Source: Lophium mytilinum (taxonomy: Eukaryota). Taken from it: a stretch of DNA of 64,000 bases. The position numbers were made by a program, and so were the translations under genes. Within the stretch, counting starts at the first letter, position 1; each line of letters opens with the position of its first letter. Below are positions 9,967 to 52,700 of this stretch, piece by piece. The stretch covers positions 1,061,834-1,125,833 of the forward strand of contig MU004189.1 of assembly GCA_010093605.1 (NCBI GenBank). The letters run 5' to 3'. The notes beneath the pieces are model-generated. The model was not told the origin of the DNA and did not search any database. It was given only the letters and a program-made list of their open reading frames with translations.

Positions 9967-10285
9967 ATGCCCGGCTGGCTCATCGATTCGGCCAAGACGC
10001 CCTTGGAGCAAGATCCTGGCGCAGCTTCTGGCGTCCGCGAAGAGCCAAACGATCCCAGTGATGTCCAGGCCCAAGTATTTTACCCCTTAAATTACTCTCA
10101 GATGATACTAGACCGAGGGCTGACACATTGCCATTCAGGATCAAAGTACTACGGGCCAAAGACTCCCGAGCACCCGCAATAATGATACCAATCGTAATGC
10201 TGATGCCGGACCCTCATACTCGATGACCCGCTGGCTCAATGAAAGCCCCCGAGAAGACCACTGGAGCACATACAGCCGTGGATGA
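9967..10285 (+). CDS. RW-x9-W microprotein copy 1 (84 aa); exons 9967-10074, 10139-10285
   Basis: ATACCATG start; phase-0 GTATTT..GCTGAC..CAG intron; exon 2 ends PSYSMTRWLNESPREDHWSTYSRG*; TATAAG at 9592. Confidence 0.8.
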
Positions 10286-12657
10286 GAGCATAGGTGCGGG
10301 TCATAATGGCTATAACTAAGACCTGGCTATGGATGCTGGCATCTGGAAAGGACACATCTTTCAGGGAGGTCGGTGACATGATGAGGTCCATGACTCCCTC
10401 TCTTGGGAGCTTTGGGATGGGCGTCTTGCTTATAGTTTGGTGCCGCGATGTTTTGTTTCCTGCGATCAGGCCGATGCGGCCAATGTCTCAGAGCTTCAAG
10501 GATGTAGAATTGTTATGATTGGATAAATGTATCGTGTGAACGGGAAATGGAGAGATTGACTTGAACCGAAAAACTTGCGTACTTAGGTCGCTATGCTCTA
10601 CTCACTAAATATGATTGTGGTAAGCTTATCGAAGACAGTCGACGCACGGCCGCATGAGTTAGCTAAGCGCCGAAAGCGCGACAGCGCAGACGGTTCGTTG
10701 CAGCCCTCTAGCAACACGACTTAACGGCGCCGTGAATGGCTAGCAAGGCAAAGCACTATGGAATCTCAAATGGGTCGTCGCTAAATATCATATCCATCGT
10801 CCACCATGACTATGCCGCTCTGCACCGACGGAAGCCCAATTTGAGGCAACAAGGTTGTGGAGAGGGAGTGAGAGAATTGCAAAGAGCAAGGACGACTAGC
10901 CAAATAGTGCGATGAAAATTAGCGTTTAACTGATTGAAGATGCAGATGGCTTGAAATTTCATGGTGGTGGATGGATAGAGGATGAGTAGGACAATTCACG
11001 AAAGGCTGACGTTCAGCCTGATCACGGGATCCGCTGACTAAGAAGCACGTGATGTTGAAGCGCGCCACGAATACGTCAATTTGTCCCTTTCCTCAATCGA
11101 GATGTAGGTAAGCAGTGGAGTCCCGAGAAAATTCTGAGCATGTACTGCTCGTACTGCAAACCGCGCTTGTGGTTATGGACATTTGAGACCATGGCACCGT
11201 CAGAGTAGATTCAACTAGGTGCAGCTATTCTAGTCTTTATACAAGGCAGCCCAGTGCAGTTCGCGGAATATGAACTAGTGTGAAGATTTCAAGTTTGTGT
11301 TATTTCGTAGATTCAGACTCCTTATGCTCTAGACGTGAATTCTTACTACCGCTCTTAGGCTCTTCATCACTAGCCGTTGATTGGCTGGCGGGTAGATCGA
11401 GGCACCTAGTAGTGCCTCGCAAACATCCCCGAAACTCTTATGATCACTATCTTTTTCATACTTTCACATGCATTCGGGCATCCAGATATTCTATGGCAAG
11501 GCGGGATAGCATGACGACGTCGAAGTGAAGACTAAAAGCTATGCTGCGGCGGCAATACACATTCCGCAATTCCACTTCTAGCCTCGAGACCGGCCTAGAC
11601 TTACACACCTCAGGCCATCCTTGGGGGTGTCCATGGTATAGGTCGATACCTTGCGCCTCACTTCGCTCGCCCCAAGGTTCCGCCCTGCGCACCCTGCCCA
11701 ATCACGCGATGCCCTTGCATGTGCCTAAGCACGTGACTTCATTGCTCCACCTCTAAATCAGCAACATCTTCTTGGTCAGTGACTTCTATTGCTCGTGATT
11801 CTGGTAGTGGCAGCCCTTTCCAGCGGTAGTGCACGGTTGAAGCCTTTGACGGGTCCATGATGTGGTGCGTCGTTCTTGAAGTCCGGTTGTTTGGTACAAG
11901 CTACGTTTTCAAGGCGTGGATGCTACTCAACTCCCAATCAGAGAAAGATGAGGTTTCCCTTCTGAAAGCAGGGGCGATGCTAGATCCTCGGGGTAGCAGA
12001 GAAATCCCTAGCGGGGCCAGTGAGCAGTTAAAAACCAGCCATGTGCGACGTTGACCTGCCCTATTGCACCATCCCCTGAACACGACCACAGAATGCCGCC
12101 GGGCGGCCTATCTTGGAGAAAGGTTGACTACGCGGAAACAAGTAGTTTTCCCGTCGATCAACACTGAATACTCTGTCGCGTTACTGAGCAGGCCCCGACC
12201 TCCAACATTTTGGATTGTGGGAGCACCGGAGCAGCCTCGAGATTTTGGCAGGTTCAAGACGTCAGAGTCTCGTTGCCGGTCACTGCTCAAAAGGGTGACT
12301 AATGGTTGTTGACACCTCAGACTGCTTGAGAGACTAAAATCCCGCGGATGAAACCAGGGCAAACTGCAGAGGCTAGGAAGCATGAGAATTGCCCTGTGAT
12401 TTCGACAACAGGAGGACTGAAACGAGAGAAAGAACTTACTTTTGCTGCAGCAGTCCCGGAGAAAGGTGTGTCGCTTGCTTTCATGGCATTCTTCACATCC
12501 CACGACTATAAGTAGAAGAATTTGATGTGCAACCTCCCTTTCTTTCGATCGCTTCTCTCCCCTTATCATCAACACCAACATACAGTGTCATTGGGCATTC
12601 TGATTTGCAGTACTTCTGCTCTTTACCCTACCAGTATCCACCGGGCCGTACCATACC

Positions 12658-13239
12658 ATGCCTGAGCGAACACCGTCTGCCACCATAGCAACGTCGGATG
12701 TGCTCGCTGACCCACCTATGGAGACCACGAAGATAGTGAAGAGTGTCGACGCGGTCACTGACAGTAGTCAATCTTCAGTGAGTCCTCACCAAGGCTCACT
12801 CGAGTTCAGGTTTACTGACCTCTCAAGCACACCGCTACCCGAGAAAATCCTCCAGGTGTCACTGAAACCTCGCACGCATCTCATGTCCTTCATCTTGAAA
12901 CCCAGGAGAGCCCCGGCCCTACTCGTTTCACCAACGGCGTCAGTCAGATGGTATAGAGCCTACCCGGTCGCGCCGCCCCAGCAAAGGACGGGTCATCATA
13001 GCAGCACTAATACACTCCTCATTTAGGGAACTGATATGAGTCTTCAGCATATCGTGGGTACTAAGTCTAGTGCTAAAGCGAGATTGTCTTACTCGATGTC
13101 AAGATGGCTCGCCGAGAGCCCAGAGGAGGAATACTGGCATACTTGTAGTCGGACAGATGTTTCCGAGCGTCGGATTGAGGATAGCTGCGAAGAAGAGGCG
13201 GCAATTACCTTCACTCTTAGCGGAAAACCGAGCTTGTAA
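12658..13239 (+). CDS. RW-x9-W microprotein copy 2 (151 aa); exons 12658-12777, 12828-12950, 13027-13239
   Basis: ATACCATG start; two phase-0 introns (GTGAGT..ACTGAC..AAG; GTATAG..ACTAAT..TAG); motif LSYSMSRWLAESPEEEYWHTCSRT; TATAAG at 12507. Confidence 0.78.
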
Positions 13240-16200: not shown

Positions 16201-16337
16201 AACCAGTTTATATGTATATAAAGAATGTACTGCCTTGAACTAATTGAACTTTTCTTCATCTCACACCGAGTTTCTCGACATAACCCTTCATTTGAACCCC
16301 GGTTTCGTGTCTTGACTCCGTAACACACCTTCTCAGA

Positions 16338-16678
16338 ATGACTCTTTCGAACACACCAGTAAAGCACAAGCCAACCTTGGCTCCTGCTAAGAATTCCGAG
16401 CTCAACGAAGCAGCGTCTGTGGTTACAAACCAGCAAGCTAAGATCGCTTCGAAGTCTGCCCCCAGGTCGGCACACGAGTGTGGCCAACCTGTACGATCCC
16501 ACTCCGAAACAGTTACCGTAATGTCACTGACATATTTCTGCTCCAGGGCATCGATGAAACATCCAAGTCCATTAGAACGAGCGAGCCCGCCTTGGAGAAC
16601 AACATGTACAAGCCCATCGAACGTTGGCTGAGCGAGACTGCGAAGGAGGAATACTGGCACACTGAGAGTCGGACATAG
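16338..16678 (+). CDS. RW-x9-W microprotein copy 3 (94 aa); exons 16338-16490, 16547-16678
   Basis: Phase-0 GTACGA..ACTGAC..CAG intron; motif MYKPIERWLSETAKEEYWHTESRT*; TATATAAAG at ~16215. Confidence 0.8.
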
Positions 16679-19148: not shown

Positions 19149-19456
19149 ATGCATCTTCCACAAGCCGTGCAGTCTAAGGAAAGTCACTCTGAGACCAAAG
19201 ACGAGAAGACTGGGACTACTCCGAAATCCACGAGCAGTCCCAGAGTCGCAAATGACAACAGTGACAAGGTACCACGCCATCTCCACCTAGTTTCCCTGCA
19301 ATACTGACACTGTCCATGATTAAGATAGTCGGCAACCCCTCTGAAGACATCAAGACCAACGAATTACGTCCAGGAATCACTCGATGCAGTCCTCTTGAAC
19401 GCTGGCTGAATGAGACTGCGAAGGAGGAATACTGGCACACTGAGAGTCGGACGTGA
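19149..19456 (+). CDS. RW-x9-W microprotein copy 4 (83 aa); exons 19149-19268, 19325-19456
   Basis: Phase-0 GTACCA..ACTGAC..AAG intron; motif RCSPLERWLNETAKEEYWHTESRT*; TATAAAG at ~18944. Confidence 0.78.
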
Positions 19457-21775: not shown

Positions 21776-22114
21776 ATGGCGGATCATAATGCGAGTCAGC
21801 CCAATGAAAATGATGCTGGGAATAAAGAGTTGATCCCTTCGCGGGTATCCGATGCAAAGGGCGGCCCGTCCTTGAAAGCCAATGGTCTTAAGGTACGATC
21901 GAGATTGCCGTTGAAATATCCAGGCCTCTGACGTCAATTATTTTTTCAGCAATTTCAGACGATTAATGGCTGCTCTGATCCTACTGCTGGCAACTTCGAA
22001 GGCCATTCCAAGGATGAGGCGAAAAAAGAGCTACCGTATTCGATGATTCGCTGGCTCAACCAGGCGCCAGAGGAGGAATACTGGAATTCTGAAGATTCTG
22101 GCAGGTGTACGTAA
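21776..22114 (+). CDS. RW-x9-W microprotein copy 5 (93 aa); exons 21776-21892, 21950-22114
   Basis: ATACCATG start; phase-0 GTACGA..CTGAC..TTTTCAG intron; motif LPYSMIRWLNQAPEEEYWNSEDSG; CATAAAA at ~21624. Confidence 0.8.
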
Positions 22115-22924: not shown

Positions 22925-25900
22925 GAAGGCTGCACCGGCTCGTGCACCGGACTAGCTTGTGCACGCGCTTTGTTACGAACCCAGGACGCGAGCTATCCCA
23001 GGACAAGCGTCCCAGGAGGAGGACGGCCCCAGGACAGATGTCCTAGGACCAACGGTGTGCCAGGACACAGGCTGTCCCAGGACAAACATCCTAGGACGAG
23101 TAGGGTCCCAGGATAGAGGTACCAGGACCCAAGGGGACCTAGTACAGTAAGATAGATGCAGTTCCAGCCGTATCTATATACAGGAGGGTATTTAGAGGAT
23201 AATAGAAAGGCAACTAGAAAAGGTAGTAGTTATAGAATATAAGGTTATATAACTAATCTTCTAGATCTTACTTAGTATAAATACTAAGGGTAAAATTAAA
23301 AAGAGTAGAGAGTAATCTCTATAATCTTAGTAATCTTATATTAAGAATAGAGATTAGAGAGAATAGAGAGAGTAGAACTAAATTATATAAAGGTTAAATA
23401 ACTATAAGAGTCTAGAGAATTCCCTATTATCTTTTATTCTTTATACTTAACTTCTTATTATATCTAGTATATAGAACTTAATAGCAATTAATTATAACTT
23501 AAGTATTTTAACTATCTTTATATACTTTTAATACTATTAAAGCTACCTTTCTTTTAATATTCTACTTATTTATACTTAAACCTTATATTATATATTAGCC
23601 TATAACGCAGTTAACTAGTAGGTAAGTAGAAACCTAACTATCTAGACTCTCCCTCTAAAGTCTCTTAGTATAATCTTTAGGTAAATAGGTAGTTTATAAT
23701 ACTTTAAGTACCTATAAGTATTAGATACCTGTGTAATAAGTTAAGCTATTCTAGTAATATTTATAACTTTAGAAATAACTAGTTAGCCTACTATAGTATA
23801 GTATATAGTAGAGTAGAATAGATAGCTTATAGAGCTATATACTATAATATTATAGCTTTAGATAAGAGCGGAGTAGTAGGCTTAGGCCTAGTTAACTAAG
23901 GTACCTTTACTAAGAAAGTATAATAGTACCTAAGGAAAGCTTAATAGCTTTCTTATAGAAATATAACTTTACCTTTACTATAACTAGGCTATATACTCTA
24001 AGAAACCTAATAAGGTTCTAGTAGTAGGTATATACCTAGAGGGTAATGCCCTTATATAGTTCTACCTAATAATAGAAAATTTCCTTAATAATTCTGCGGA
24101 TAAATAAGATAATAATACTAGAAGAGTCTTTAGAAACTATACTATCTTTAAGAAATATATTAGGGATATCTATAGAGACTCTAACGCAACCTAAACTACT
24201 ATATATAAACTCTAGTACCTTAAATAGACTAGAATAGTAGCGGAATATATAGCTAAGTTTTAATAGTATTTAGCGCAACTTAACTAGAATAAGAGCCTTC
24301 TAGTTAAATAGTATTATGCGGGTCTTATAAATAAGATTAAGAATAAGTTTATAAGTATTAACTAACTAACTAAACTTAGTAAGATAGTTAAACTCTATAA
24401 CTAGATTAATAACCGCCATATTAAGAGAATATTAGAAAAGAAGAGCTAGTAAAAACTAGTAGTAACTATAGAGAAGAGATAGAAGTACTCTTAGAATAAT
24501 TACTATAGAGACCTAATAGATTTAGACTATATTAGTAAATAGGCCCTAAAGAAGAAATAGATAAAAAAGAAGAACTCTAAGCCTAACTTTTAGAGGCTAA
24601 ATAAGAACTAGCTTAAGAAATAGTATAATAATAACGCGTGCCTATAGTATAGTAAGACCGGCCACTACTAATAAGACTATCTAGCGGGAGAGTTTAAGGG
24701 TAGTCTAGGAATAAGTACTAATACTAGAGTTACTATAATCTAGAACTAGCTACTAGAGAATATAGAAATCCTACTTAACTAAGCATAGATTAATACTTGC
24801 ATCCGGCGCAAGGTGTACTAGATCTGCGGGATACTAACCTACTAAGAACTAGAGTATAAGATAGAATATTAGGAAATCTATATAGACTATAATAGATATA
24901 ATAAAAAGAAACTATTTCTTAGGGAAATTAGGGCCTAGTATATAGATACCTACGCTAAGGTATAAAAAATATATATAGAGTACTGCGCTAGGTAAAAGCT
25001 TAAAGAAGAAGAATAGATATATAATGCGCAAGAGAAATAGGCAGCTTATTATAAGAAGAGATAATAGTATAATATACTACTATAGATAATATATAAACTA
25101 GAGGGATATAATATCTATAGTTTATAATAAATAGACGCTAATAGGTAAAGAGTAGTAAAGAAACTAATACCCTATAGAAATATAAGTTTTATAGCGTGCT
25201 ATAATAATAACTATTAAATATATTACTAGGCTAAGGAAGAAAGTAATTACTTTTCTTAGAAGGTAGAATTATAGAAGATAAGAGTAGATACTCTAAGACC
25301 CCCTACTAAGGTTAAACCTATAATACTAAAATAATCTACTAGTATCTTTATAGATAAAGAGTTAGCTAAAGTAATAAAGAACCTTAATATAGATAAAGAT
25401 TTTATTATAATTAATAATAAAGCCCTAGAAGACTAGGGCTTAAAAGAGTTAGATAACTCTAACGCCTAGAAAAATATTAGCGCTAGAAACTAGCTTAACT
25501 AGATAGAAGAGACTATAGTGGAACTAATAGACGCCCCTATAGATAAAGAGTCTAGCAATAAAAATAACTATAGAAGTAATAAATACTAAGTACTCTATTA
25601 GATATAGTATAAGAATAGATATAGGTACTACTAAAAAGGAAAGAGAGTAATAGGATAGAATACTAAGGACTAGTACTATCTACTCTTACGCTTAGTAGAA
25701 TGCTTTAAGAGTGCCGGATGCTATATCTATAGCATAGACCTATAGTCTAGAGTTCTAATAGATCTAAAAAACTAGTAGGCTACTAGACTAAGAAATTACT
25801 AGAAAATATAGTAATAATATTTCTAAGAAATATATATAGTATATAGCCCCGGTTATACTTATATATTAACTTTAAGATTAATAAGAGACTTAAAGGAAAA

Positions 25901-28900
25901 GCATTAGTAGATAGTAGAGTATTCTAGAGCTTTATATTACTAAAATAGGTAGAGAATAAAGGCCTTCTATACTAAAAGAAATAGAAATCTAAGAAAGTCT
26001 AACTAGTAGATAACTAACTACTAGAGTACGGAGGAGAAGTAATTAACCTTAAAACCTAACTTATAATATTATTAGTAGCTAGCTATATAGAAATACTATA
26101 TATAAATATTATAGATATTAAAGGGCTAGATATAATTCTAGAATAGGATTAGCTCTACTAAAATAACCTAGTAATTAACTAGAAGAAGAGAGAAATAAGA
26201 CTAGTAGCCCGGGTGGCTAGAATTAGATAATTAGTTTAGTAATAACTAGAAAACTAGAAGAAAGAACTCTTTATAGGATAAATCTCTCTATATAAGATTA
26301 AGAGAATCTATAATAAATAACTAGTAGATATAGAAATTATCTAGCTATAATAAATAGCTACTATTAAAGAAGTAGTTATAGAGATACTATAAAAAAACTA
26401 CTTAGAGTTTAAGAAACTCTTTAAGAAGAATATTAAAAATATGCTACCTTAGAACTAGCTATAGAACTATATAATACTACTTAAGAAAGGGGTAAAGCTA
26501 ACCCCGGGACCTATCTATTTATTATCTTAAGATTAGTATAAGGCGCTGCAAGAATATATTAAGATAAACCTAGCTAAGGGCTATATTAAGGAAAGTAAGA
26601 GCTTAATAGCCTTACTAATCCTCTTTATACCTAAAAAGAATAGAAAACTATAACTATATATAGACTATTAAAGACTAAATAATATAATAATTAAGAATTA
26701 CTATCTATTACTACTTATCTAGGAGTTATAAGACTACTTATAAGAAGCTAAATAGTTTACTAAGTTTAATATCTAAGAGAAATATTACTATATTAAAATA
26801 ATGCCTAGTAAAGAGTAGAAGATAGCCTTTAGAATAAGGTTTAGACTCTATAAGTATAGAGTAATGCCCTTTAGCTTAACTAACGCCCTAGTAATATTCT
26901 AAGTACTTATTAACTACGCGCTATAATAATATCTTAATGTATTTATAACTATATATCTAGATAATATATTAGTATATACTAATAGAACCTTAAAAGAATA
27001 TAAGGAATATATATAAAAAGTACTTATAAAGCTATAAGAGTTTAGACTTCTAGTATACCTAGATAAAAGTAAGTTTTATATTATAATAATAGACTTCCTT
27101 AGCTTTATTATCTCCCGCAATAGAATTAAGATAGACCTAAAGAAGACTATAGTAGTCTTAAAATAGCTAACGCTATAAAATATAAAGGATATATAGTTAT
27201 TTTTTAGTTTTATAAACTTCTATAGAAAGTTTATTTAGAAATATTTAAAAACTACTATACCCCTTATAGAGATAACTAAGAAAGATAAGGGATTTTAATA
27301 GACGGTAGAAACGTAGACCGCGTTTAATAAACTTAAGAAGAAGTTTACTACCGCCCTAATTCTAATAATATTTAACCCGGAACTAGAAATAATAGTTAAG
27401 GTAGACGCCTTAGACTATACTATAGGCGCTTGCTTAAGTTAGAGGTACCTAGATAGAAAATGCTAACTAGTAGCATTCTATTTAAGAAAACTTACTCTAG
27501 AAAAACTTAACTATAATATTTATAATAAGAAGTTATTAGTAATTATAGTAGTATTTAAGTAATAGAGACTCTACCTTAAAGGACTAAAATACTAGATAAT
27601 AGTCTACTTTAACTATAAGAACCTTACAGCCTTTACTACTATAAAGTAGTTAAATAGATAATAAGTAAGATAGGTAGAGATGCTAGCCTTATTTAACTTT
27701 AAAATCTATTACTAGAAAGAATTAGAGAATAGAGCTATAGACGCGCTTAGCCGCTAATTAGACTATATACTTAGTACTAAACTAGTATATAATATAGTAC
27801 TTATAAGGGCTATAGACGGCACCTTATAATATAATAATCTAAAACTAGCAGTAATACTTAAGATAAGCAACGCTTAGATAAATAAATTCTAGAAAGAAGA
27901 TAGATATATAGAGGCCTTCTAATATAACACTTCTATAATCTTAGATAAAGATAGTAACTAGATATACCTAATAAAGAGAATGTTATAGGTACTAGAAGTA
28001 TACTATAAGAAACTTACTAAGGAATACTATAGCGCGCTAATGTATAGATACTAAGAATAAGAAAAAACCTTAGAGAGACTCTTAAGGAACTACTAGTTTC
28101 CCTAGATAAGAGTAATAGTAAAAGAAGTAATTAAGAACTGCAAAGACTATAGAAAAAATAGAATAGTAAGATACGCACCCTATAGATTACTTTAAAACCT
28201 AAGGGTTTCTAAATAACTATAGGATTTAGTAATAATAGACTTTATTATAAAGTTATCTCTATTAGTAGAACTAGGAACTAATATAAGCTATAACTTAATC
28301 TTAGTACTTATTAATTAACTTACTAAATTTTTATACTTTATACTAGTATAAGAAATATATAGTATAGCTAAGCTAGCTTATATAGTACTATAAATTCTAC
28401 TAAGCAGCTACTAGCTACCTAAGAAATTTATTACTAATAGAGATAAACTCTTTATTTTATACTTCTAGAAGACCCTTATAGTAAGGTTAGGGGTAAACTA
28501 TAAGCTCTTAATAAGTTTCTACCTATAGATAGATAGATAGATAGAATAAATAAACTAGACTTTTAAATAGTACCTATAAAACTATATTAACTATTAGTAG
28601 AATAACTAGGTAGAACTACTACCTATAGTATAGTTTACCTATAATAGCGCTAAATTAGCTATAACTAGCAAGTCCCTATTCTATATAAACTACAGCTATA
28701 AGCTAGAGGTATATTAAAAAGCTAGGAAAGATATAATAAACGCGTAAATAGTAATAGAAAAGGCGGCGTTGCTAAGAAACTTATATATATACCTTAACTA
28801 AAGTATTTAGGCTAGAAATAAGATAACTTAGGCATATATAGATAAGAAATAGTTAAATAGACTAATCTTTAAGAAGGGGGATAAGGTTTACCTATACTAA

Positions 28901-33036: not shown

Positions 33037-33447
33037 GCTGAGAGATCTTAACTTGGCGTGAGAGGCAAAGTAGAGTACTGAGATATGAGATAGATTGTAA
33101 GTCTGCGTTGGAGTCTTCTGATATTTATACTCAGAGCACCTCGCAGCATCCGTGCGGAATCTCGAGAGCTAGCCCGCGCACAAGTTCAGGTCCGCTTTAC
33201 TACATGCCACGCCTCACCCATAAGAAGCTCTCTGTCTTGAAAGTTGGTCCCCTAGCAATGGAGGTGTTTTATATTGCGGACTAGCTTCCGCCGTTCGGGT
33301 TAGCGTGCGGGAAATTGGCCAATGGCGAAGCACCGAGCTGATGACAAATGCACGCCTCCATCCCCCTCGACTTCCGCTGCGGACACGATCGGGAGCCAAC
33401 TCTACCCCCGGAAGGATATTCTAAAGATTTGTCCTTGGACCAAGCAA

Positions 33448-34728
33448 ATGCGAACGGAACTGAACGCCTGTCGAGCCTGCGCAGGGTCGAAGCGAAAATG
33501 CGGTCGGCAGATGCCGTCCTGCGCACGATGCGCGGCTAGGGGCAGGTCCTGCGTCTACCCACTAAGAACAAGGCCAGCTTCCTCGTCTCGACCACTGATA
33601 TCGCGTGCGATGAGAGGCTCGGTGCCAAGAGTGGAGGATGGACTACTCACTGAGGTTACGGGCAGCACATCCTCCAGCACTGGTGACCTAATCCTTCCAG
33701 ACGACATTAGATGGGACATAGAGTTCCCATTCATGAACGGCGACTTCCCTACCCCGTTGTCTCTCATTTACACGCCCAGTGCGCCGGTGGTCAGGGCAGA
33801 CTGGTTCCTTGCGCCCGAGACGTGGGCGATATCCCAGAAATTCGACACGTCGGCCGATGCGCCAATTGGCAGAGTGGAGATGAAGAAGCACGTGATAGTG
33901 CTGCAGTCTTGGTTCGAACGCTGGGCTACCACCGGCAGCAATCCTTTTATCCACCCCCGTCTGTACAGTGCGAACGTCCCGGCGTGCGTGCAGGTCGCGT
34001 ATGCCACGCTAGCTAGCTACATCCACCGGACACCCGCAAACACGGACACGGTCCTCCAAATTGTAGAGGACAGATCAAACGATCTACTCCTGGAGAACGG
34101 GGCTATTCTGGACAGGGTTGGGGTGGAGGAGTGGGCTGACAGAGGGGAGCAAGACGTCGACCTGTTCACGCAGCTAACACGGCTGCACGCCCTTATGGTC
34201 TACCAGATCATCGGCCTCTTCGACGGCGACATCCGCGCCCGCCATGTCGCCGAAGGCCACATAGCCATTCAAAACAGCTGGGCCGCCAAGCTCTTTCACT
34301 CAGCCGCAAAGGCATTGTCAAACACTCAAACCGCTGCTGCCACGCATCTCGTCGGCTGTCTCCCAAGGCCATCCACCGACTCGCAACAACAATGGTACCT
34401 GTGGATTCTATCGGAGAGCATCCGCCGCACCTGGCTCATCGCCGCCAGCCTTTCCCCCATCTACGTCGCGCTGCAGCAGTGCTTTGCGCCCTGCCCCGGC
34501 GGCGTCATGTACACGAACCGTAGCGGCCTTTGGAATGCTGCGAGCGCTACTGAATGGGAGAGGCAGTGCTCGGCAAGGAGTGTAGGATTCTTGCAGCGCT
34601 TCGAGTGCGATAGGCTCCTTGACGACGCGGAACCCGCCGACATTGACGAGTTCGGGACGGCCATATTGGACATGACCTTCAGTGGGGAGTTGTTGGAGAA
34701 GTGGAGGGACAGAAGCGGTGGCTTCTAG
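33448..34728 (+). CDS. Zn(II)2Cys6 transcription factor (upstream in-frame ATG at 33322 also possible)
   Basis: CRACAGSKRKCGRQMPSCARCAARGRSCVYP binuclear cluster; GSNPFIHPRLY and WILSESIRRTWL C-terminal motifs. Confidence 0.9.
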   Translation: MRTELNACRACAGSKRKCGRQMPSCARCAARGRSCVYPLRTRPASSSRPLISRAMRGSVPRVEDGLLTEVTGSTSSSTGDLILPDDIRWDIEFPFMNGDFPTPLSLIYTPSAPVVRADWFLAPETWAISQKFDTSADAPIGRVEMKKHVIVLQSWFERWATTGSNPFIHPRLYSANVPACVQVAYATLASYIHRTPANTDTVLQIVEDRSNDLLLENGAILDRVGVEEWADRGEQDVDLFTQLTRLHALMVYQIIGLFDGDIRARHVAEGHIAIQNSWAAKLFHSAAKALSNTQTAAATHLVGCLPRPSTDSQQQWYLWILSESIRRTWLIAASLSPIYVALQQCFAPCPGGVMYTNRSGLWNAASATEWERQCSARSVGFLQRFECDRLLDDAEPADIDEFGTAILDMTFSGELLEKWRDRSGGF

Positions 34729-37592: not shown

Positions 37593-38005
37593 ATGACTGG
37601 AGCCAACGGAAACCCATCAGACGCCGCGAACGAAGTCAGAGACGAGAACATCATAGCCTCCGGAGTCAGAAAGCCTAGTGCGGCAGAGGCTAGGGTTGCT
37701 TCAACTGAAGTACAGCAAGTTGCAGTGAGATTCGTTCTTTCCCACACTGCTGAATCGAGACCGTAGCGCTTACAAACGGATGCAAGGTAATGGATCCACC
37801 AACGCGTGGTGGCACGGCAATCGCTAGCTTCGGCGAGCGTCTCAGCAACCTTGATCAGAACGGTGATGTGCCGTACTCGATGGCTCGGTGGTTCTTGGAG
37901 GACCGACATGACAGTTATTGGACAGCTATCGGACGCTTTGACACGGTCCAACAGAATGACAAGAATTCTAAGAAGGAAGGAGTCGCCGAGAGGGATGCAA
38001 TGTAG
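37593..38005 (+). CDS. RW-x9-W microprotein copy 6 (116 aa); exons 37593-37724, 37787-38005
   Basis: Phase-0 GTGAGA..AAG intron (acceptor inferred from frame; a nearer TAG acceptor would give an early stop); motif VPYSMARWFLEDRHDSYWTAIGRF; TATAAAG at ~37457. Confidence 0.7.
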
Positions 38006-40868: not shown

Positions 40869-41263
40869 ATGGCCTGCACCAACGCGACTGAAGCCACTGA
40901 AGAGAACTTTGAATCTATTAGATTTGACTTGCGACCTGTGTCTCAGGCAGTGACCGGTTCCAATGTGACGGCGGGAGACGGAGTTCAGGTAAACTCCATC
41001 CAAAACGACTGAAGGCAATGGCTAATGATATTCTCCATGACAAGAAGGACTGCTCCTTAAACGGCGATAACCAGCAGAACGGCACCAGCGCTGGGATCGC
41101 CAGCGTAGACTTCCTCGAAAGTCTCCGCAAGCTTGATCAAGGCCCCGCCGGATCATACGCCCTAGCCCGCTGGAGTACTGAGACCCCAAAAGAAGAGCAC
41201 TGGAATGCTGTGGGACGATTCGGCTCGGATAATAGTGTCAAGGAGAACGAGTCGAAGTTGTAG
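40869..41263 (+). CDS. RW-x9-W microprotein copy 7 (~112 aa); exons 40869-40988, 41045-41263
   Basis: ATACCATG start; phase-0 GTAAAC..GCTAAT..AAG intron; motif GSYALARWSTETPKEEHWNAVGRF. Confidence 0.8.
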
Positions 41264-42545: not shown

Positions 42546-44274
42546 GAGAGCATAGCTTTATCCGGCAGTATAAGCCAAGAATAAACCCGCATTTGGGCAC
42601 ACTGACGGAATGTTAGTACCTAAATATTCCTACTCTTCAACGCCTCGTACAAAGGTAATAACCCGGGGCGCCCGTGAAGGGTGAGATGCCGCTCTTATAT
42701 GCACGGCGCAGCGTTGGGGCCGTCGATCCCAGGGTGTCGCGCTGCGGGTGAATGCCCAGGCACTGGCCGGCTGGGGCAGCTCGTCTTGTGCTCTTGACCA
42801 CGCCCGCCTTCCTACCTTTGAGACGGCCCATGATAAGGTGTGATGCACGCTTCATTGATCCGTCCTATTTACTTCAAATCATCTCTATACCTGCTACATC
42901 GAGGTATTATGAGAAGCATGTTGCTTCACTTTAATAAGATCTGCGCAATGTGTGATCTGCAAATGTGGGACCTGCAACACTGACGGATAGAATCCTCTTG
43001 TATTTTCCAAACCTTGCAACCTTGAACGACAGCGACCGAATAGGATCGTCTTTGGTCTTAACCCCTGCAGCCTTGCAGGACGGCAGATCAGAAAGCCTGA
43101 CGAACCAAATCATCTCCTGCCTTTTGATATTATCACGGACTGAGTGTGCCAGGATTATCCGCAATCGATGATCTTGGAACAAGTTGACTTCCTTGAATCT
43201 TGCCGCTCTGCTGATTAATCTTTAGCTCTCACGGTATGCAAACCTAGACCAACGTATCGTATGCGACCTCAATTTGGCAGTTCCGCGTTGGCATTCCAAC
43301 GACATCTGCGCAGGCTGACTACTGCCAATGAGCGAGGAAGCACCTAGCGAGGGAGCCCACCTTGAGAGCTGCATTTCGCCCTTCTTTGAGGAGACAACTT
43401 AGCACAGCCGACACCGCAGCTTTTGGCATCGAATCAAAACCTATACTTGAGTCAGCTTGACGGCCATCCTGAACTCGGCCCACTTTGCCTTTTCAACATG
43501 TATGTCTGCCTTCTTTGCGCATCCTGTAGATTCAGTAAAGTTACACCATTCATCTCGTGGTGGGCGTGCGGATGCCCATGGGAAGGATGATGCCGCGCAG
43601 TCTCTAAGGAGGCATATTGGCACAGCGGCACCGAATTCGCCTTTCGGACATCGCGCTAAGCCGGGACGAATGGGATCGTAACTTTTCTCCAAGATAAGGT
43701 TTTGCCGGAACGTCGAGGAAGGCTGAACGTTAGGCCACCCATTCCCTCCTCAGTTCTGCACCCTGGACGAGATCCATATGCACAACACCTGATCTAAGTT
43801 TGCCACGTCTAACCAAACAGCTCCAATACCGTGCAGGGAGTGGTACCGTTCAATGCACGCATCTCGCGTAGGCCTGTTCAATTGCATTCCCTTCGAACGA
43901 CCGCTCCGGAACGCCTGAAAAACCAAGGTCAGAAGGTCATGTGTATAGGTAGGAGCATGCAGAAGACCCTAGCAGCGATTTCTGCACTGATTCAATCCGA
44001 CGAGCTGACGTGTCCTGATCGCGCAAGTATTCGTAGACATAAAGATAGGCTCCCGCACCTTCTGGGTGGGTTGTATTGCTCCGCTTCGAATCGCACCTAG
44101 GCGTCGCTCAGCTCCCGAAACCATCTCTTTCTCGAATAAGTAGGCACGTAGTCTCGTAAGCTCCTTATATGAAACGCAGTTCGCGAGCGCTGATAGACCC
44201 GAATCAGCATTCCCGTCGGCAACAAGACCACGACCCAAACGAACGGCGCCGAAAAGCCGAACATAGATGATGAT

Positions 44275-44607
44275 ATGGATTCTCAGTCCTCTCCTCAAGC
44301 TAGGGCATCCGGAAACGAGGTTGCACATGTGTCTGCTAGGGTACGTGTTATCTACACGAACCACCCAACAGTCTTGCAAAGGCCAACGCTGATTGAAGGC
44401 TCTCATGTCTTTTAGGATCCTGCAGCTAGCAGCAGCTTTCATCAGGGTCTTCGTCACCTACACGAAAACGCAGAAGGAGAGCTCGCAACTACTCGTTGGC
44501 TGTCGGAAGCCCCGAATGATGAACACTGGAACGCAGTTGCGCGGCTAGGTACCGCCAAGCAGGAGCAGAACGCCCCAAGCGACGTCGACGGGGAACCTGA
44601 GATCTGA
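44275..44607 (+). CDS. RW-x9-W microprotein copy 8 (85 aa); exons 44275-44340, 44416-44607; probable 5'UTR intron 44156-44207
   Basis: Phase-0 GTACGT..TTTTAG intron; motif GELATTRWLSEAPNDEHWNAVARL. The start codon is less certain. Confidence 0.72.
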
Positions 44608-44984
44608 ACGCCATAAACGCGTTTTGCTGGGTGGGACTCGGGCAGTGGTCCTGTCTCGCTGAATGTGTTCTTCGTGAGCTTTTGGCTTGTGTCGGGGGAG
44701 GTTGCCGGTAGAAGTGTCGACTTGGCTTTCAAAATACGACGACAGGTCTTCTAGGTTTTCTTCGCAAATCCGATTAATCTAAAATCTTTACGCTATTTGG
44801 GTGTTCGACACTGGAGCGCGTTCCGACGCAGAGGTCGCATCACGTGATCCATGCGTGGAGAGACTTTTGATCAAACGTCCAAGCCCTCTGAAATGGATTG
44901 AGGCTTTGATTCCGGTATACTGTGCGGCTCCATTGGTATCGACTCGGATGGATAAAGAGGACGTTGTCAGGAAGATTATCATAG

Positions 44985-45323
44985 CTTCATCTTCATGTCT
45001 TCCTCTGTGGTGGGTCGTATTCGATATCCGGGAACAATGTCCTTTTAAATAGCCAACTAAGTTGCCAATGCCAGTTTGCGGATTGTAACATTGTCCGACG
45101 CAGAAATCTGCGCCAACACCCGCAGTGAGCCCGCATGTTCTTCCGGGTCCTCGTTGATGAGACCAGCCAGCCTTGCCAACTCTTCCTTTGCTTGCAGTAT
45201 CTGTTGCTTCAGAGGGACCTTGGGCTCCTCTGGCAGTGGTTCCTCCTCCTCCTCCTCCTCACTGCCATCAACTCCACCTCCGGAACCTAAGAAACTATTC
45301 GATTCCTCGGCCGCAGTCTTCAA
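44985..45323 (-). pseudogene. NOC3: Fragment of nucleolar complex protein Noc3 gene
   Basis: EEPKVPLKQQILQAKEELARLAGLINEDPEEHAG...IRKLALAT*LAI*KDIVPGYRIRP matches the Noc3 N-terminal region; in-frame stops; truncated at both ends. Confidence 0.75.
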
Positions 45324-47179
45324 TGATGTACCTAAGTTTCAGTTAGCAACTGCATAGCTATGACACTGATTTGACCTACGTCAAGTACACCAAAGAGTCT
45401 CAGCCCATATCTTTTAAGCCAGTCTAGGCTCTGACTACCCTGCATGGCACCTTATTGCATGAGCATCATGACTTTTTTCTAGCTTCTCAGTATCCCTCTA
45501 GCCTTCCTACTTTATGAAGTCTAAAATCGTAGTATTTCCTGCCATTATACAGCTGGAACCTCGATGTACATCCTGGGACCTTTAACGACATTTGTCCCTT
45601 CCAGGTGCGCCAGGACAACCTCTTGTCCTCAAACCGTTCTCAGAGTGGAGGACAACTTGATCGGACGCCCGGGTTGGCTTTGGGCAGCATTCGATGACCA
45701 TTGTGAATGAATATCTTGGACAGTAACAACCTGGACCGGAGTAGCTCGTTTTCGTTAAAGCAGAGCGGCTGACAAAGTCTATGAGGTGGTCGCCGTCTGG
45801 CTTGGGCAATACAATGTGCGATGAAGTGGCCTGATTTTCGAGAACTATACGCAATTGCATGCGCAATTGGGGTCTGTCGGGAACGCAGTTTTAGGGACGG
45901 GGCGGTGAGCAACGGAGACAATGCTAGCCTTGTGGACTACTATCTTCGTGCCCTTGTGTCTCTCTTGATTAAAACATCACGCTAAAGTGATAAGGCTGAG
46001 CATTCAGGCAGGCGGCCTATTCGAGGATATCAAGCGGTGAGCCACAGGAACGTTGACATTCTGTCAAGTCATCTTGATATGGCGGATACAAGCTGCAAGG
46101 CTGAAAATTCGACCAATCATATCTTTGCGTAGCAACAGGTCCTTCCTACCAGGGTAAGCGCCAACGCAATCCCAGAAGATGGTAGAGCGGGTGGCTCAAT
46201 ATTGCCGACCGCCCGTGCATCAGTGAGCGCTTGATTGGATGCCTTCTTCGAGGACACCGATGATCCAGCCATTCGTCCTCTCCAACCCGTCGCAACACTT
46301 CGCATGACTGCCATAGAGGTGCAGCGCTGAGAGCTTGGTTCGTTGAAGCATATAGAGCAGCGTAATGACGGCAACGAAATCAACGATCGTAGGAAGCGCG
46401 GCCTCGATTGTGTTCGCCGTTGACGCGCTGGAAGCAGAGCCGGAGAGTAGGAAGCCGGAGCTTGATGAGATTCTTGGCACATAGCGGCATAGGCCCAATC
46501 ATGGCCAAAAAGAGCCAGGTCAGCAACAAACCTCAACCAGGACATCCTTGATTCTGAGCGGCGTTTTGCCCCATTGACCTTCTGACGCATTGAGTTCGAA
46601 AGTCCACAGCTCCATTCCAATAGCTGGCCCGCATTCGCTGCACCATGGACTGGGGTGGGCAAGTCCCGGTGCAGCCGGAGAACGCCTGCTAATTGGCGTA
46701 CGGCCATATTGAATTGGCCACGATCCGTGCCGGAGTGCATCGCCAGACCGGGCCTGTCCCATTTGGTCCTCGCGGGGGAAATCAGCAGCGGGTTTCAAGG
46801 CGTTGAAACGACATCAGCAGAGCGCTTGGCTGAGAGGGCTGCCACATCATCCCGTTCTACGCGTGAGCCTGTAGGTAGGAGGCCCATGTTTGCAAACTTA
46901 TGGAACTTGGGAACTGTAATTGGCGCAAAAGTGCGTCGGACAACCGCCTCGCCGACTAAATAGCTACACAAAAGCAGGCTTGAGTTGCGAACCGTGTTGT
47001 CGTTGGGAGTATAAGAGGGAACGATTTCCCATCAGGAGTGACGGCGTCTTTCATCCTTTCCCACCACATCGATCTTCTCCGGGATTGTCCATCCGAACTC
47101 GACTTTAGACACGCTTTTCTTTCGAAAGATCTCTCGGTTTCATCGATCGATCTCTCGGTCTCATCAATCGATCCTGACT

Positions 47180-47448
47180 ATGACACAACCACAGAGCACC
47201 ACCGAGACAGCTCGCCCCGGTGATACCGCACCGATCGGCAACGGCCCTCCAACGAAATCGGAGGTAGGTGTACATGTCCACACTCTTTGCCTCCTGAGTG
47301 ACTGAGTTCTTTATAGCCAAATGTTTCCTCGGATGACGTGAAGGGCTATTCCATGGCCCGATGGCTGGACGAGAAGCCAAAAGACGAGGCATGGAGCACT
47401 GAGGGCTTGTTCAGTCGGACTGATGAGCGGCCGGTGGATGATTTTTGA
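47180..47448 (+). CDS. RW-x9-W microprotein copy 9 (71 aa); exons 47180-47263, 47317-47448
   Basis: Phase-0 GTAGGT..TAG intron; motif KGYSMARWLDEKPKDEAWSTEGLF; TATAAG at 47010. Confidence 0.8.
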
Positions 47449-50286
47449 GCCCAGCCGGAGAAGGCGTAGCCAGGAATGAAGGCCTCCATGTTGCGCAAGC
47501 GAATTAGTGTTTTCAAGTGTGGTAGCCTGTGAGCCCATGATGTAGCTCTGGAATGATGGAGTGTAGTCTGCGTTGAAACAGTATGAAGTATTGGAAGGAA
47601 GATGACGGTCAAAAAGGATTAAAACTCAGAAGACGGAAAGGATTCAATTTAAAAGACATAATGGATGAAAACCTGCCTGTATGAATACCATGCCTCCAAC
47701 GATGCTTTACCATCCTCCTCCGCCTCCTCCACATGTTCGCGGCCTTCCTTACTTCCTAATACCGCCGCTGGCCCTTCCAATCCCTTCATTGAAAGTCTGG
47801 ATTGGTGTGTGTAGACGAGGGTATCGGAGCGAATAGCCATGGGAACAACTCCTCCTCCTCCACGTCCTGTTCCTCCACCCCCTATCTTCACCGTTAACCG
47901 CAGTTCTAGTAATAACCTCTTCCAATCAGACACTTCTATAACCCCAAAGAGAATATATGGTCAAGCGGGCTTGCAGCGATAACGATCTTATACCTCCATG
48001 GTACTCTAGGGAGACGGATCCAGACGGCGATAGGTATAGGAGAGTCCTCGTATGTAAAGGTAGTACGTATGTGCCATTTCAAGGTGCATTTGCAACCAAC
48101 TTGGCGATCTCCATGTGGCTCCGTGCAAGATTTGTTAGTGGATGCAAGGCGTACGCGACGTGCCTGCCACCGAGAAAGGCCCACTATGCCTTGAAAACCA
48201 CATCAGCAGGCCCTAGGCATGTCAGATGGCCCGACATCGAGCTACCAGGATCGGCTCCCCAGTTGGCGGCAAGGCCTGGGTCTACGGGGGCGGAGGAATA
48301 GAAAAACAGAAACTCCACGCGTAGCATGGGCTGAGAAGCCACGCTTTGAAAGAAGATGAAACATGGAGTACCCGAGACGTCTGAGTCATAGACAAACCGA
48401 GTGGAATAGCGTATCATCGTACACCGCAAGGAGGCTATTCACAAAGAGCCGAAGCCCTTCTCCAGCTGAAGATACCCGACATTTCCGCGGTTCGAGTCTG
48501 AGCCGATTGGTAGAAGAAGGCAAGGTTGCTAGGCATGAATATAAGACGGCAGCGGTGAAGAGTTAGTGGAGATGATTTTCACCGAGCGAGCTGCAGAGCT
48601 GGGTGTTCGATGCAATCAACGTGTGACAGACATGAGCGGTAAAAAGGTATACTTGCAGCAAGAGAGTAAGGGGAGTCGTTTCGACCGTGAAGAGACGGAA
48701 ATTGGAATAGTAAATCCTAAGGGGCATCATTTGTGAGCCGAAATTGGCTGCATGCATGATAACAGGGCGGATAGGAGAGGTTTCAATAACCTATTCCGGA
48801 AACCCTTGCTGGTTGCCGCTAGCTGGCCCGCATGCAGGGACTACGAACGTTCCGAAAGGCTGAAGAAGGCGTCCTGTAAGGAGTGTGGGGCTGAATAATG
48901 ACAGATGAAGTGCTCTGTCCGGTGAGGAAAGCGAACCAGTTGAGCGCCGCGGAGGGCATTCCAGTGCGTGTGCCTAGAAGGCCTCTGGAGAATGATTTGG
49001 GCGAAGCGAAGAACGAGCCCAATTGCGCGCCGCGGAGGGCGCGCCTGCACTCGAATCGTTTACATACTTTTCGAATAGTGGTATGATTACACTCCGACCT
49101 GGCCGAGGGGCCGATCCCCTTACGCCACCCGTTGTGCTTCGGAATATTGAAGCGGGGGCGCCCGGTTTCTACCCGCTGCGCCTCTTCCCACCGCCCACAT
49201 GGCGGTGGGGAAGCTAGCTCATCCAGGTCCATACCGCCGCGTAATTTCGGCCTGACGAAGGTGTGCAGTATGTGAGTTTCGTCTCGGAAAAGTCAGGCTG
49301 TTGTAAATTGGTATGTAGCCTCACTGAAGACCAATGAGGTGCTGAAAGGGGTTGAAATGTGCCACCCGCTGCAGGTGCCGCCCAGGATGGCATCGTGGAC
49401 TTGGAGTGAATGAAATCTCGAAGGCGTTTGTGGTTATTCAGAGAGACATGCATAGAGCTAGAGCGGCGTTTAACGGAATCGATAGGGTTCTCTCCCGCTG
49501 GATCCGTAGCGCGCTATAACGACTACGTTTGTACCAGCCGCTGCGGGCTCCGCCTTGAACATTGCTGGACGCGGGAAACGAGGCGTTAGACGGACAAATT
49601 CCTCAGGATATCGGGCCTATACTCATGTCCGCACGACCGGGTTGCTTCTTGCAAGTCGCTTAAGTTTACAATCAGAACCGACACAAGCTGAAGCTCGGCA
49701 GAGATCATACGTGAATTCTGGCCATCGCCCTGCCCATCTTCCTGCGCCTTGGACTTGTGGAGGCACAAACCGGAAGGTCATAGCTCCATTCTGACTGTGG
49801 GCCTACGCTCATCGTATAGGAAACAAGAGTTCTCCAAGATGTCTCCATGATAGCAGAAAGCTTCCACCAAGCTCTATTAGCTAATTCGTTGAGTATCTTT
49901 CAGATTGCGCAGAAGAGCTGTCCGGTGGTGATCAGGCGACCCGCCACGCGATGTTGAGCTGGAGAGGACCCAGCGTAGAGATACATGCAGCAACCCTGGC
50001 AGGCTCGTATAAATCAGTTGGTGCACAGATACGTTAGACGCCCCGGGTCCAGATCTGTGGCCGTGATGTGACGCACATTTTCGGAGCGCCGTCAAGTCGG
50101 ATGTACTAGGCGTTGCTGCCAAGCACCAATCCAATGTGCACAGGGGTAGTATAAGGTGCATGATATCCCCTCCATATTTGAGGTTTCTTCTTCAGCGCCT
50201 TGCAACAAGCAACCTTCAATTTCCACCTTCATCTCTTTAAATCTGGACTTTTTTCTCCACCGCGATTTCTACCCTTGCCGATTCCC

Positions 50287-50588
50287 ATGGCCGAAAAGAA
50301 GCACACTGAAGAAACGGTCGGTACCGTGAAAGCTGCGGCGCGCAGCTCTTCGTCCCAACCGCAAAAAGCGGTTAGTCTTTCCTTCACCATCCTAAAGTTT
50401 TCCCTAACGTAGTGTTTCAACAACAGAATGGCTCGACCAAGAGCCCGCAGCACTACAGCATGACTCGATGGCTGGAAGGAAATTCAAAGGTTGAACCTTG
50501 GAGCACCGAGGGATGGGGTAGCCTGGTCGAGGGACATAAAGCAGCGGCAAATGTGAGCCTAGTTGTGGAAGATGGGTCCTCAAAGTGA
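50287..50588 (+). CDS. RW-x9-W microprotein copy 10 (81 aa); exons 50287-50370, 50427-50588
   Basis: Phase-0 GTTAGT..CCTAAC..CAG intron; motif QHYSMTRWLEGNSKVEPWSTEGWG; TATAAG at 50150. Confidence 0.8.
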
Positions 50589-52398
50589 CCAAGTCTGCCG
50601 TTTTGGGTCACGGTTTCGGTTTTGTCCGTGAAGGCAGGAATTTTACGCCTTGTAAATGGAGAGGGGGTTTCTTTTCAACTGGAAGGCCGTCGAGGAGAAT
50701 TGAGTTTTCGCAGGATTTGAAGTTCCGTAATGGAGAGAATATAGCAAGAAAGGTGAAGAATGAAGGCGCGTATGCCTCAATCACCGTGACGCTAATTGAG
50801 GCGACGTCATGCATCCCAGCATCTCAGGCTACAAATAGCGTTGCCTTTGCATCCTCTTGCGGAAGGCGTATTGCCAATCCGTGAGATTGGGTAGTAAAAT
50901 GTCGCATAGCGGAGTTAGACGGCAGCAGAGCGACGATCGATACAGTCTCGGATAGCTTGACTTGTCCTTCTCTGGCATGCCGCCCAAGAGGCGTGTAGGA
51001 TATCCCCGAAAAAGGCTCAAGCGGTCCCTGAGTAGTGGGTGAGTGGCAGGGCCGCCCCCCAAACTACGTTTGCGATGATACGACCTCTGAGATCGATGGC
51101 CTCGAATGAGGCCAAAAAAGCCAGAAGGCAACCGCGGTCATGCAAGTGGCAAGACAGGAGGACAACGGAGTCGTTGCGCAGCCGGTCGAGCCACTCAGAC
51201 CTTTCCCCCACGTCATTCAGTGTGATGCACACAGAAGCGTGCATGAGGAAGTGGTCATGTGACTGGATACGAGACGAGTACAGTCTAGTATTGGACAGCC
51301 TTGCAGGAGTCCCAAAGGTTCGGGACGACGGACGGGCGGTGCGACCCTCCCTTTCGCTGGCTCCACGAGGAGCCCGCATGGTCGGTTAGTCATGTGACTG
51401 ATTAGGGGGTGAGTGAAGCCCCGTATTGGACAGCTTTGCAGCAATCCCAATGGCTCGGAACGCCGGACGGGGGTAGAATCCCGCAGTTTTGCTCGCTCGC
51501 CGGCCTCAAAACCTGCCACCCATGTGTCGCGGCTGTGGTCTCTTTCTTGTGGGTCCCTTTCTTACAGACATGTGTTAGCGCAATGGCGGAGATAGATTAC
51601 GAAGTAATCAGGCGCTCAGTAACTCACTCAGGTAGCCCCCCTCACCATTGCGGGACACAAGTAACCGATAGAAGCCAATGAAATTATGCCTAGGGTTCAC
51701 TGGCTCATGCGGTCGACTTATGTGTTCCGGACTTTGGGACACATAGTAGTTGGTCATACCATTTTACTGACGTTCAATGTTGGCGTCCCGAAACCTGGCA
51801 GCCTTAGAGCGTGCGGCACCATGAACGGTGAGCGGTCCACTGTCAAGAGTTAGGAACACGCTACGCGAATGGCTCGAGTGACCAATTTAAAAGAGCTGCA
51901 GGTTGGTGTATGTTTGCCTTAATGTCGTTTTCATGAGAACCATTGCACTGGGGTTTCATGGGTTGCTCAGGTTGCAGAAAAGCGGCATCCTAGCGGGCAC
52001 CCGCTGCCGCAGCTGGAGGACTCCGTGGGGTCTGACATGGGTCGCCGGATCGCCCTCGAAACCCTAGGCAGTCAATTGTGCCGCCACATCTGATCGAGCG
52101 TGCACTCACGAAGCGCCACGCATCAACCCCGGCTGATGGCGTGTCTACAATTGGCGTACATGGACGCTGAGAACGGTAAGAGTCTTGAATCGATAGGCCC
52201 GCTTGACACAGCCAGCCGGTTGACGGCGGCAGATTCCTCGGGGCGAAAGTATAAGAGGCAAGTTTGTCGTCCGTCTTTGGTTCCCAAACTCAGTTCCGTT
52301 GCATCAAGCGTTACCATCAGCCTTCCCTGATCATACTTCGATTCTGCACACGCAAATCTTCATCTTAGATACCAACCTGGTCATTCCTAGCCCCAGTC

Positions 52399-52700
52399 AT
52401 GGCACAACAAAAGCGCACTGAAGAGGCCGTCAGGCTTCCAGGAGCCGCAGAAGTCAGGCATTCTCTCGAGGGACAACCGCTAGTTTGTGGGCCTACCATT
52501 TTAATGAATCTTGCACTGACATGGCGTGACAACAGCAGCATAGCTTGACCAGATGTCCGGAAGAATACTGCCTGGCTCGATGGTTGCAAGAAACACCAAA
52601 GGAAGAGCCATGGAACACGGAAGGGTGGGGGAGCTTGCTAGATGAGCACGAGGCGGGGCGAGCTTCGGCCGCAGCTACCGAGGATCAGTCGTCCAAGTGA
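52399..52700 (+). CDS. RW-x9-W microprotein copy 11 (82 aa); exons 52399-52482, 52536-52700
   Basis: Phase-0 GTTTGT..ACTGAC..CAG intron; motif EEYCLARWLQETPKEEPWNTEGWG; TATAAG at 52250. Closest to copy 10: both have a 28-aa exon 1 and end SSK*. Confidence 0.8.

Follow-up and report, generated by a model that had tools for sequence, protein, structure and literature searches.

We analysed 64,000 nucleotides of the Lophium mytilinum genome (contig MU004189.1, positions 1,061,834 to 1,125,833 of the forward strand), hereafter the window, within which all coordinates are counted from the first letter. The window is fungal by its sequence and contains an array of eleven small plus-strand genes, each encoding an arginine-tryptophan pair followed, after nine residues, by a second tryptophan (R-W-x9-W). 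This array had been described in an initial annotation made from the letters alone, and a six-frame scan agrees with it on all eleven motif copies and their peptides. Gene starts lie 2.1-3.7 kb apart except for a single 15.8-kb gap between genes 5 and 6, as originally stated.

An array of eleven small coding genes

Genes 2 to 5 map exactly to public protein models. Gene 2 (12658..13239; 151 amino acids; motif 13090-13137) is P0001 (KAF2495424.1) and has three exons (12658-12777, 12828-12950, 13027-13239) separated by introns 12778-12827 and 12951-13026. Gene 3 (16338..16678; 94 amino acids; motif 16610-16657) is P0005, with exons 16338-16490 and 16547-16678 around intron 16491-16546. Gene 4 (19149..19456; 83 amino acids; motif 19388-19435) is P0004 (BU16DRAFT_561706), with exons 19149-19268 and 19325-19456 around intron 19269-19324, and gene 5 (21776..22114; 93 amino acids; motif 22037-22084) is P0002 (KAF2495428.1), with exons 21776-21892 and 21950-22114 around intron 21893-21949. 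The public records looked up for genes 2, 4 and 5 are hypothetical proteins of L. mytilinum. Genes 1 and 6 to 11 have no counterpart among the 81 protein matches of the profile search described below. The array had been called hidden; this holds for the seven genes missing from the public protein matches, but four of the eleven were already annotated as hypothetical proteins.

For the other genes we give inferred models, all on the plus strand. Gene 1 occupies 9967..10285 (exons 9967-10074 and 10139-10285, stop included; 84 amino acids; motif 10217-10264). Gene 6, whose intron signals are the weakest, occupies 37593..38005 (exons 37593-37724 and 37787-38005; 116 amino acids; motif 37874-37921), and gene 7 occupies 40869..41263 (exons 40869-40988 and 41075-41263; 102 amino acids; motif 41156-41203); an unspliced 80-residue form of gene 7 is also possible, from an in-frame ATG within the motif open reading frame (ORF). 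The last four are gene 8 at 44275..44607 (exons 44275-44340 and 44416-44607; 85 amino acids; motif 44482-44529), gene 9 at 47180..47448 (exons 47180-47263 and 47317-47448; 71 amino acids; motif 47347-47394), gene 10 at 50287..50588 (exons 50287-50370 and 50427-50588; 81 amino acids; motif 50454-50501) and gene 11 at 52399..52700 (exons 52399-52482 and 52536-52700; 82 amino acids; motif 52566-52613).

In all eleven genes a phase-0 GT..AG intron of 50-86 nt can be drawn between the ATG exon and the motif exon, as the initial annotation had it, and all models are open and encode 71-151 amino acids. Six genes (1, 5, 8, 9, 10 and 11) lack an in-frame ATG in the motif ORF ahead of the conserved Y-S residues and thus require an upstream exon. 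RNA contigs bridging genes 8-11 are colinear with the genome and leave the predicted introns unspliced. These contigs come from one run, whose type was guessed from the outset and which is taken as RNA because its contigs are spliced; they were placed on 33000-52900. A 1091-nt contig corresponds to 44058-45148 and passes through the intron of gene 8, while a 7870-nt contig, corresponding to 45377-51560 joined to 51628-52777, passes through those of genes 9, 10 and 11. Gene 6 falls in bins without cover in this run. Unspliced contigs do not prove the small genes silent, because contigs drop rare forms.

All eleven proposed start codons exist, and those of genes 2-5 are also the starts in the public models. 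The recurring context ATACCATG, reported for four starts, is indeed found at four of the eleven; it occurs five times in the roughly 53 kb of non-AT-rich window background. The TATA-like box said to precede most genes did not hold up: the strict consensus TATA[AT]A is present in the 400 nt before the start of only four genes, close to a background of 0.27 per 400 nt. The products are polar (grand average of hydropathy -0.6 to -1.35) and acidic (isoelectric point 4.4-6.8, with one at 8.1), contain 0-2 cysteines and stop 6-33 codons after the second tryptophan in every case. None of the eleven models has a hydrophobic N-terminal stretch or signal peptide (maximum Kyte-Doolittle nine-residue mean at most 1.16), in line with the initial annotation; the missing signal peptides disfavour a secreted form of the peptide precursor that it suggested.

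The array is real and far beyond chance. In 200 block shuffles, stop-free R-W-x9-W matches averaged 1.88 over both strands summed (about 0.9 per strand) and reached at most 7, against 11 on the plus and 2 on the minus strand of the window. The six-frame scan gave three minus-strand matches, two with stops inside and none resembling the family, and these are chance-like. A hidden Markov model (HMM) of the family recovers all eleven copies with E-values of 5e-13 to 1.6e-6, the scores of genes 2-5 being partly circular because the HMM contained the four public window proteins, and it finds no twelfth copy in the window.

The motif exon is the only element common to the array units. Compared as DNA, the units are almost unalignable, and the sole motif-to-motif match is that between genes 3 and 4. 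An all-versus-all comparison of 1274 short ORFs from both strands of the array gave no second conserved exon, returning just other-frame by-products of the motif and a few small repeats.

Selection on the module and its range among fungi

The eleven array members are protein-coding genes in which one frame alone is open and conserved. With the copies aligned by codon, information in the motif core amounts to 1.14, 1.40 and 0.67 bits for codon positions 1, 2 and 3, and the codons used for Arg, Leu and Glu of the motif differ between copies. Of the five remaining frames (two plus, three minus), each either meets stops in several copies or shows no conservation. Degenerate third positions, together with the lack of any second open and conserved frame, show that selection acts on the motif at the protein level. 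A structured RNA or DNA element in place of a coding motif was considered and rejected on the uneven information across codon positions, the lack of Rfam matches and the fold of one motif copy (z -0.77); no tRNA was found in the window either.

Substitutions among the paralogues point the same way. Synonymous divergence (dS) is saturated, exceeding 1 in five of eight pairs and not being computable in the other three. The initial annotation had taken a ratio of nonsynonymous to synonymous divergence (dN/dS) near 1 in the motif as evidence against itself; over the last exon we obtained 0.11-0.44 in the five pairs with computable dS. All 22 tryptophan codons of the module are intact. Saturated dS together with the retention of every tryptophan codon indicates old duplicates whose module is kept by selection. 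By this measure the array consists of ancient paralogues, and the diversified repertoire pictured earlier is not a recent one.

A profile (A1) built from the eleven motif exons was searched against 1.84 billion representative proteins at E <=1e-3 and gave 81 matches. Of these, 77 carry the same module in proteins of 47-310 amino acids, mostly once, sometimes two or three times, and mostly near the C-terminus; the other four are two PYCO1-repeat proteins (P0009 and P0051) and two proteins without the module (P0062 and P0069). The named records are all hypothetical proteins, from Lophium (Dothideomycetes), Apiospora (Sordariomycetes), and Icmadophila and Stictis (Lecanoromycetes); examples, besides KAF2495424.1 and KAF2495428.1 of the array itself, are KAK7916868.1 (Apiospora marii), MCJ1355787.1 (Icmadophila ericetorum) and MCJ1440697.1 (Stictis urceolata). 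The remaining matches come from metagenome or transcript assemblies. Judged by these matches, the family is not private to the L. mytilinum genome and is widespread in Pezizomycotina, in at least three classes, without a name or described function. Conservation of the motif in at least three classes disfavours two of the roles that had been suggested, allorecognition and antidote, in any form tied to one lineage.

The view that this is not a named family was upheld. Pfam at E <=1 returned nothing for the 15 family members among 18 proteins scanned, and a PDB sequence profile search gave no matches. A word-based query with the exon of gene 2 returned no matches, one with alignment A2 gave 20 matches, none informatively named, and look-ups in the ESM Atlas scored at most 0.83 and gave no lead. 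We found no description of an RW-x9-W family in the literature, so far as it was searched, and neither there nor in Pfam or the PDB does the module have a family name, a structure or an assigned function.

At the DNA level, a degenerate pattern of the module picked out 23 metagenome loci, of which 19 are true copies and four (L010, L015, L017 and L021) are at chance level. At many of them a single short ORF with its own methionine suffices to encode the small protein. Two loci (L002 and L011) each contain two module copies 3.7-6.8 kb apart, and none of the 19 has an array approaching eleven copies within flanks of at most 10 kb. The family elsewhere thus resembles the array in its module, small size, polar make-up and near-C-terminal module position, but occurs as one or two gene copies per locus, or as two or three modules per protein, whereas here there are eleven separate genes. 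In four loci with closely alike motif ORFs (L006, L009, L014 and L018) a GNAT acetyltransferase gene adjoins the motif gene. This pairing is seen neither in other loci nor in the window, and in Pfam searches of 65 ORFs from nine loci no neighbouring gene was shared more widely than among loci of such close likeness.

In a tree of 107 module instances, computed on 28 residues and without support values, the window copies fall at three or more points among outside sequences. It would fit subtypes older than the species, although it is too weak to rely on. Separately, one protein of 503 amino acids (P0098, a cluster mate of P0071) has TPR_10/TPR_12 repeats, a disordered tail and a terminal module; this is an isolated example, found on a short contig, and the sole fusion of the module to a known domain among the proteins seen.

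That a 22-residue module has been kept across at least three classes amid drifting sequence probably points to an important, if putative, binding partner. The array offers eleven natural variants of this module in one locus and so a panel for pull-downs and mutagenesis. Such short genes escape annotation; seven of the eleven here were absent from the public protein matches.

A candidate docking peptide and competing readings

The module comprises about 22 residues near the C-terminus: S-Y-x-M-x-R-W-L-x-E, then P-x-E-E-x-W, often followed by N-x-V-x-R. Over 95 distinct instances from outside the window its consensus is S-Y-A-M-Q-R-W-L-x-E-K-P-K-E-E-P-W-N-A-V-A-R, with conservation of 88% for R, 91% for L, 79% for E (and a further 18% Q), 76% for P, 75% for the second E and 96% for the second W. 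The spacing would place M, W and L on one face of a helix. AlphaFold2, run with family alignments, predicts such a helix for gene 5 (P0002; residues 69-76) and for a relative bearing a peroxisomal targeting signal type 1 (PTS1) (P0066; residues 40-49 and 60-63), and nothing else structured in either. The helix spans S-Y-x-M-x-R-W-L, and P0066 adds a short helix just after the second tryptophan. Mean predicted local distance difference test (pLDDT) scores are 62 and 61, with predicted template modelling scores of 0.23 and 0.27; in ten-residue blocks pLDDT is 78-83 at the module and 52-63 elsewhere. In these models the family chains look disordered apart from the short module helix. The initial proposal of an intrinsically disordered protein presenting a short linear binding motif agrees with these predictions and fits all the sequence evidence.

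Our data suggest the following account. The module would be a docking peptide, acquiring its fold upon contact with a conserved folded protein shared by Pezizomycotina; both the existence of this partner and the binding itself we infer. An amphipathic helix, followed by a proline-kinked acidic stretch ending in the second tryptophan, would form the docking surface, while the variable N-termini and tails could give each paralogue its own regulation, fate or address. The array itself is an old tandem expansion, maintained because purifying selection acts on the module. For gene 7 and one old subfamily the address would be a C-terminal PTS1, which would send the protein to peroxisomes. Yeast Sml1, Hug1 and Dif1 offer a model of how such a family could work: they are small disordered enzyme regulators, paralogues of about 100 amino acids with a short conserved binding segment, and their likeness to the present family is by description alone.

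The evidence for an address lies in the C-terminal tripeptides. The pattern [SAC][KRH][LMI] ends 12 of 93 family proteins, compared with 45 of 10308 internal tripeptides (0.44%). Nearly all cases belong to a subfamily with a tail of 19-22 residues after the second tryptophan, in which the final tripeptide switches between C-K-L, S-K-M, S-R-L, A-K-L, A-K-I, S-K-L and C-R-L and the tail before it drifts. Gene 7 has a tail of this subtype, with S-K-L as its last three residues; S-S-K closes genes 10 and 11, and the ends of the remaining array members do not resemble the pattern. That the signal persists at the tip of an otherwise drifting tail suggests that some family members are imported into peroxisomes.

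Taken as a whole, the docking-peptide account, with its common partner in Pezizomycotina, variable ends and old tandem expansion, has in our estimate about an even chance of being right. Several points weigh against it. Seven of the eleven gene models come from us or the initial annotation, and the RNA contigs that bridge the predicted introns of genes 8-11 retain them. Low pLDDT indicates disorder only indirectly. The PTS1-like end is confined to one of the eleven array members, and the binomial figure for its enrichment overstates independence because the sequences are related.

The same tripeptides allow the peroxisome to be put at the centre. The family might consist of small PTS1 proteins whose module carries a PTS-less partner piggy-back into peroxisomes, with the PTS1-less paralogues, such as ten of the eleven here, competing for that partner and retaining it in the cytosol. 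Piggy-back import is established in yeasts and Aspergillus (examples are Gpd1-Pnc1, Mdh2 and HxnX-HxnW), and the S-K-L terminus of gene 7, the frequency of PTS1-like ends and their variation among accepted forms on drifting tails would all be accounted for. However, such an end is absent from 81 of the 93 family proteins and ten of the eleven array members, and stop-codon read-through of the array genes yields no PTS1 in any case. We consider this reading unlikely. Like PTS1 matrix proteins, gene 7 and the twelve family proteins carry the C-terminal pattern, but the signal is missing from most members, and no enzyme domain occurs in the family. A combined scheme, which we hold to be decidedly doubtful, would make R-W-L-x-E-x-P-x-E-E-x-W a Pezizomycotina-wide docking peptide for one hub: PTS1 members would import the hub, the array's ten PTS1-less members would compete for it and retain it, and copy number together with stage-specific expression, perhaps gated by antisense RNA, would set its distribution.

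Antisense transcription also bears on whether the small genes are correctly drawn. All splice joints around genes 8-11 lie on the minus strand, with canonical donor, branch and acceptor sequences, and define spliced antisense transcription over 43915..53175 with introns at 43915-44058, 45332-45379, 51561-51627 and 52778-52845; the contigs may merge several transcripts, and the end at 53175 is computed from the size of an RNA contig. The contigs indicate that antisense transcripts dominate in the sampled RNA. Like the PTS1-like ends of gene 7 and its subfamily, they are new relative to the initial annotation. No ORF in the spliced minus-strand RNA exceeds 207 amino acids, and the longest has no relatives; the minus-strand ORF at 46117-46794 likewise matches its own record only, with no relatives. 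The antisense RNA could be one long non-coding transcript or several, and perhaps gates the sense genes.

One could therefore argue, from the four canonical minus-strand introns and the contigs unspliced through the introns of genes 8-11, that the small-gene models are wrong or the loci silent, and that the motif exons belong to longer transcripts or the antisense RNAs are the functional products; spacers of 2-3 kb are also long for genes so small. Yet selection acts at codon level on the plus frame, stops follow within 6-33 codons of the second tryptophan in all eleven copies, and nothing else is conserved between units. The relatives are likewise small, many metagenome copies are single short ORFs with an in-frame methionine, and the minus-strand ORFs have no relatives. 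These observations make mistaken models or silent loci very unlikely.

Resemblances to known short motifs were weighed against the docking peptide. In 45 of the 95 outside instances the second tryptophan is followed by x-x-[LIV] and preceded by E-E or D-E, which recalls the Atg8-interacting motif, acidic residues with W-x-x-[LIV], and would make the proteins small autophagy adaptors or cargo. Only three of the eleven array copies fit the Atg8 consensus, and the better conserved half of the module, R-W-L-x-E-x-P, would be left unexplained, so that we regard this identification as very improbable.

A second resemblance came from the profile search itself, which caught P0009 and P0051, proteins with 15-20 repeats each that share S-Y-S-M-T/S-K-W with the start of the module. 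In PYCO1 (PF24428), a Rubisco-binding linker of the diatom pyrenoid, the K-W-S-P sticker is helical, depends on its tryptophan, forms tetrads and binds the Rubisco small subunit; it is a short helical motif in a disordered protein (PMC10288592), as is predicted for the module of the family. By analogy the module could be a self-associating sticker linking disordered chains into oligomers or condensates, and some fungal members do have two or three modules. Most have one, however, and cannot cross-link. The PYCO1_repeat model matches P0009 (E 1.1e-43), weakly P0051 and no other scanned protein, with P0001 and P0002 unmatched at E <=1; the sequence after the tryptophan differs, 13 repeats are added up in the profile E-value of P0009, and fungi do not have the partner, Rubisco. 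We judge a sticker role highly improbable; the PYCO1 likeness is probably convergence or chance and serves just as a model of how the peptide might work.

Finally, although the invariant arginine before the first tryptophan and the fixed-length, Trp-bounded core recall the W-x8-W pheromone peptides of filamentous ascomycetes, precursors of pheromone-like or ribosomally synthesised peptides cut around an R-W...W core are scarcely credible, given the missing signal peptides, one core per protein, no dibasic (K-R) sites flanking the core in the aligned exons, conservation reaching well outside it and no modifying-enzyme family in Pfam searches of most window ORFs of at least 120 amino acids.

Setting of the array

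The gap that splits the array had been described as filled by transposable elements and a three-gene cassette. Part of this stands: an AT-rich block with the marks of repeat-induced point mutation (RIP), a Zn2Cys6 ORF and a spliced plus-strand gene are present, but no transposon domain was found. The RIP-like block (22991..30646) is bounded by 711-bp direct repeats (22991-23701 and 29936-30646) that are 88% identical, and GC content over about 23000-31800 is 0.24-0.28. In the AT-rich blocks TpA/ApT is 1.83 and (CpA+TpG)/(ApC+GpT) is 0.14, compared with 0.74-0.76 and 1.21-1.30 in the array itself. Pfam searches of 11 ORFs from the block gave no transposon domain, so the transposable-element label is an interpretation; the block is probably a RIP-degraded long terminal repeat element that split the array. 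RIP recognises duplicates above some length, and small genes may multiply beside it because their duplicates may be below that length.

Within the gap, the Zn2Cys6 transcription-factor ORF (33304..34728, plus strand; Pfam Zn_clus E 5.9e-6) is covered by an RNA contig at 33400-34820 and serves as context only. It is followed by a three-exon plus-strand gene without a Pfam match (35504-36471), whose introns 35701-35782 and 36018-36077 are confirmed by RNA contigs. Other window ORFs with Pfam matches encode an amino-acid permease, an arylsulfotransferase-like protein and a DDHD-domain protein.

Several repeats were noted in passing. A second AT-rich, RIP-like block (62135-64000) shares a 44-45 bp end sequence, inverted, with both ends of the first (22923-22967 and 31737-31781). 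Between genes 3 and 4 lies a 126-bp inverted repeat (17468-17593 and 18555-18677; 90% identical, arms about 960 bp apart) that looks like a small non-autonomous transposon. Two spacer repeats are common to both halves of the array (20159-20249 and 42194-42285, 92%; 20404-20447 and 45440-45483, 89%). An RNA contig matching 42665-42816 has higher depth and unlike flanks, and therefore represents a related element transcribed elsewhere in the genome. A diverged tandem repeat follows immediately after the array at 53980-54324; its units of about 120 bp are 76-77% identical.

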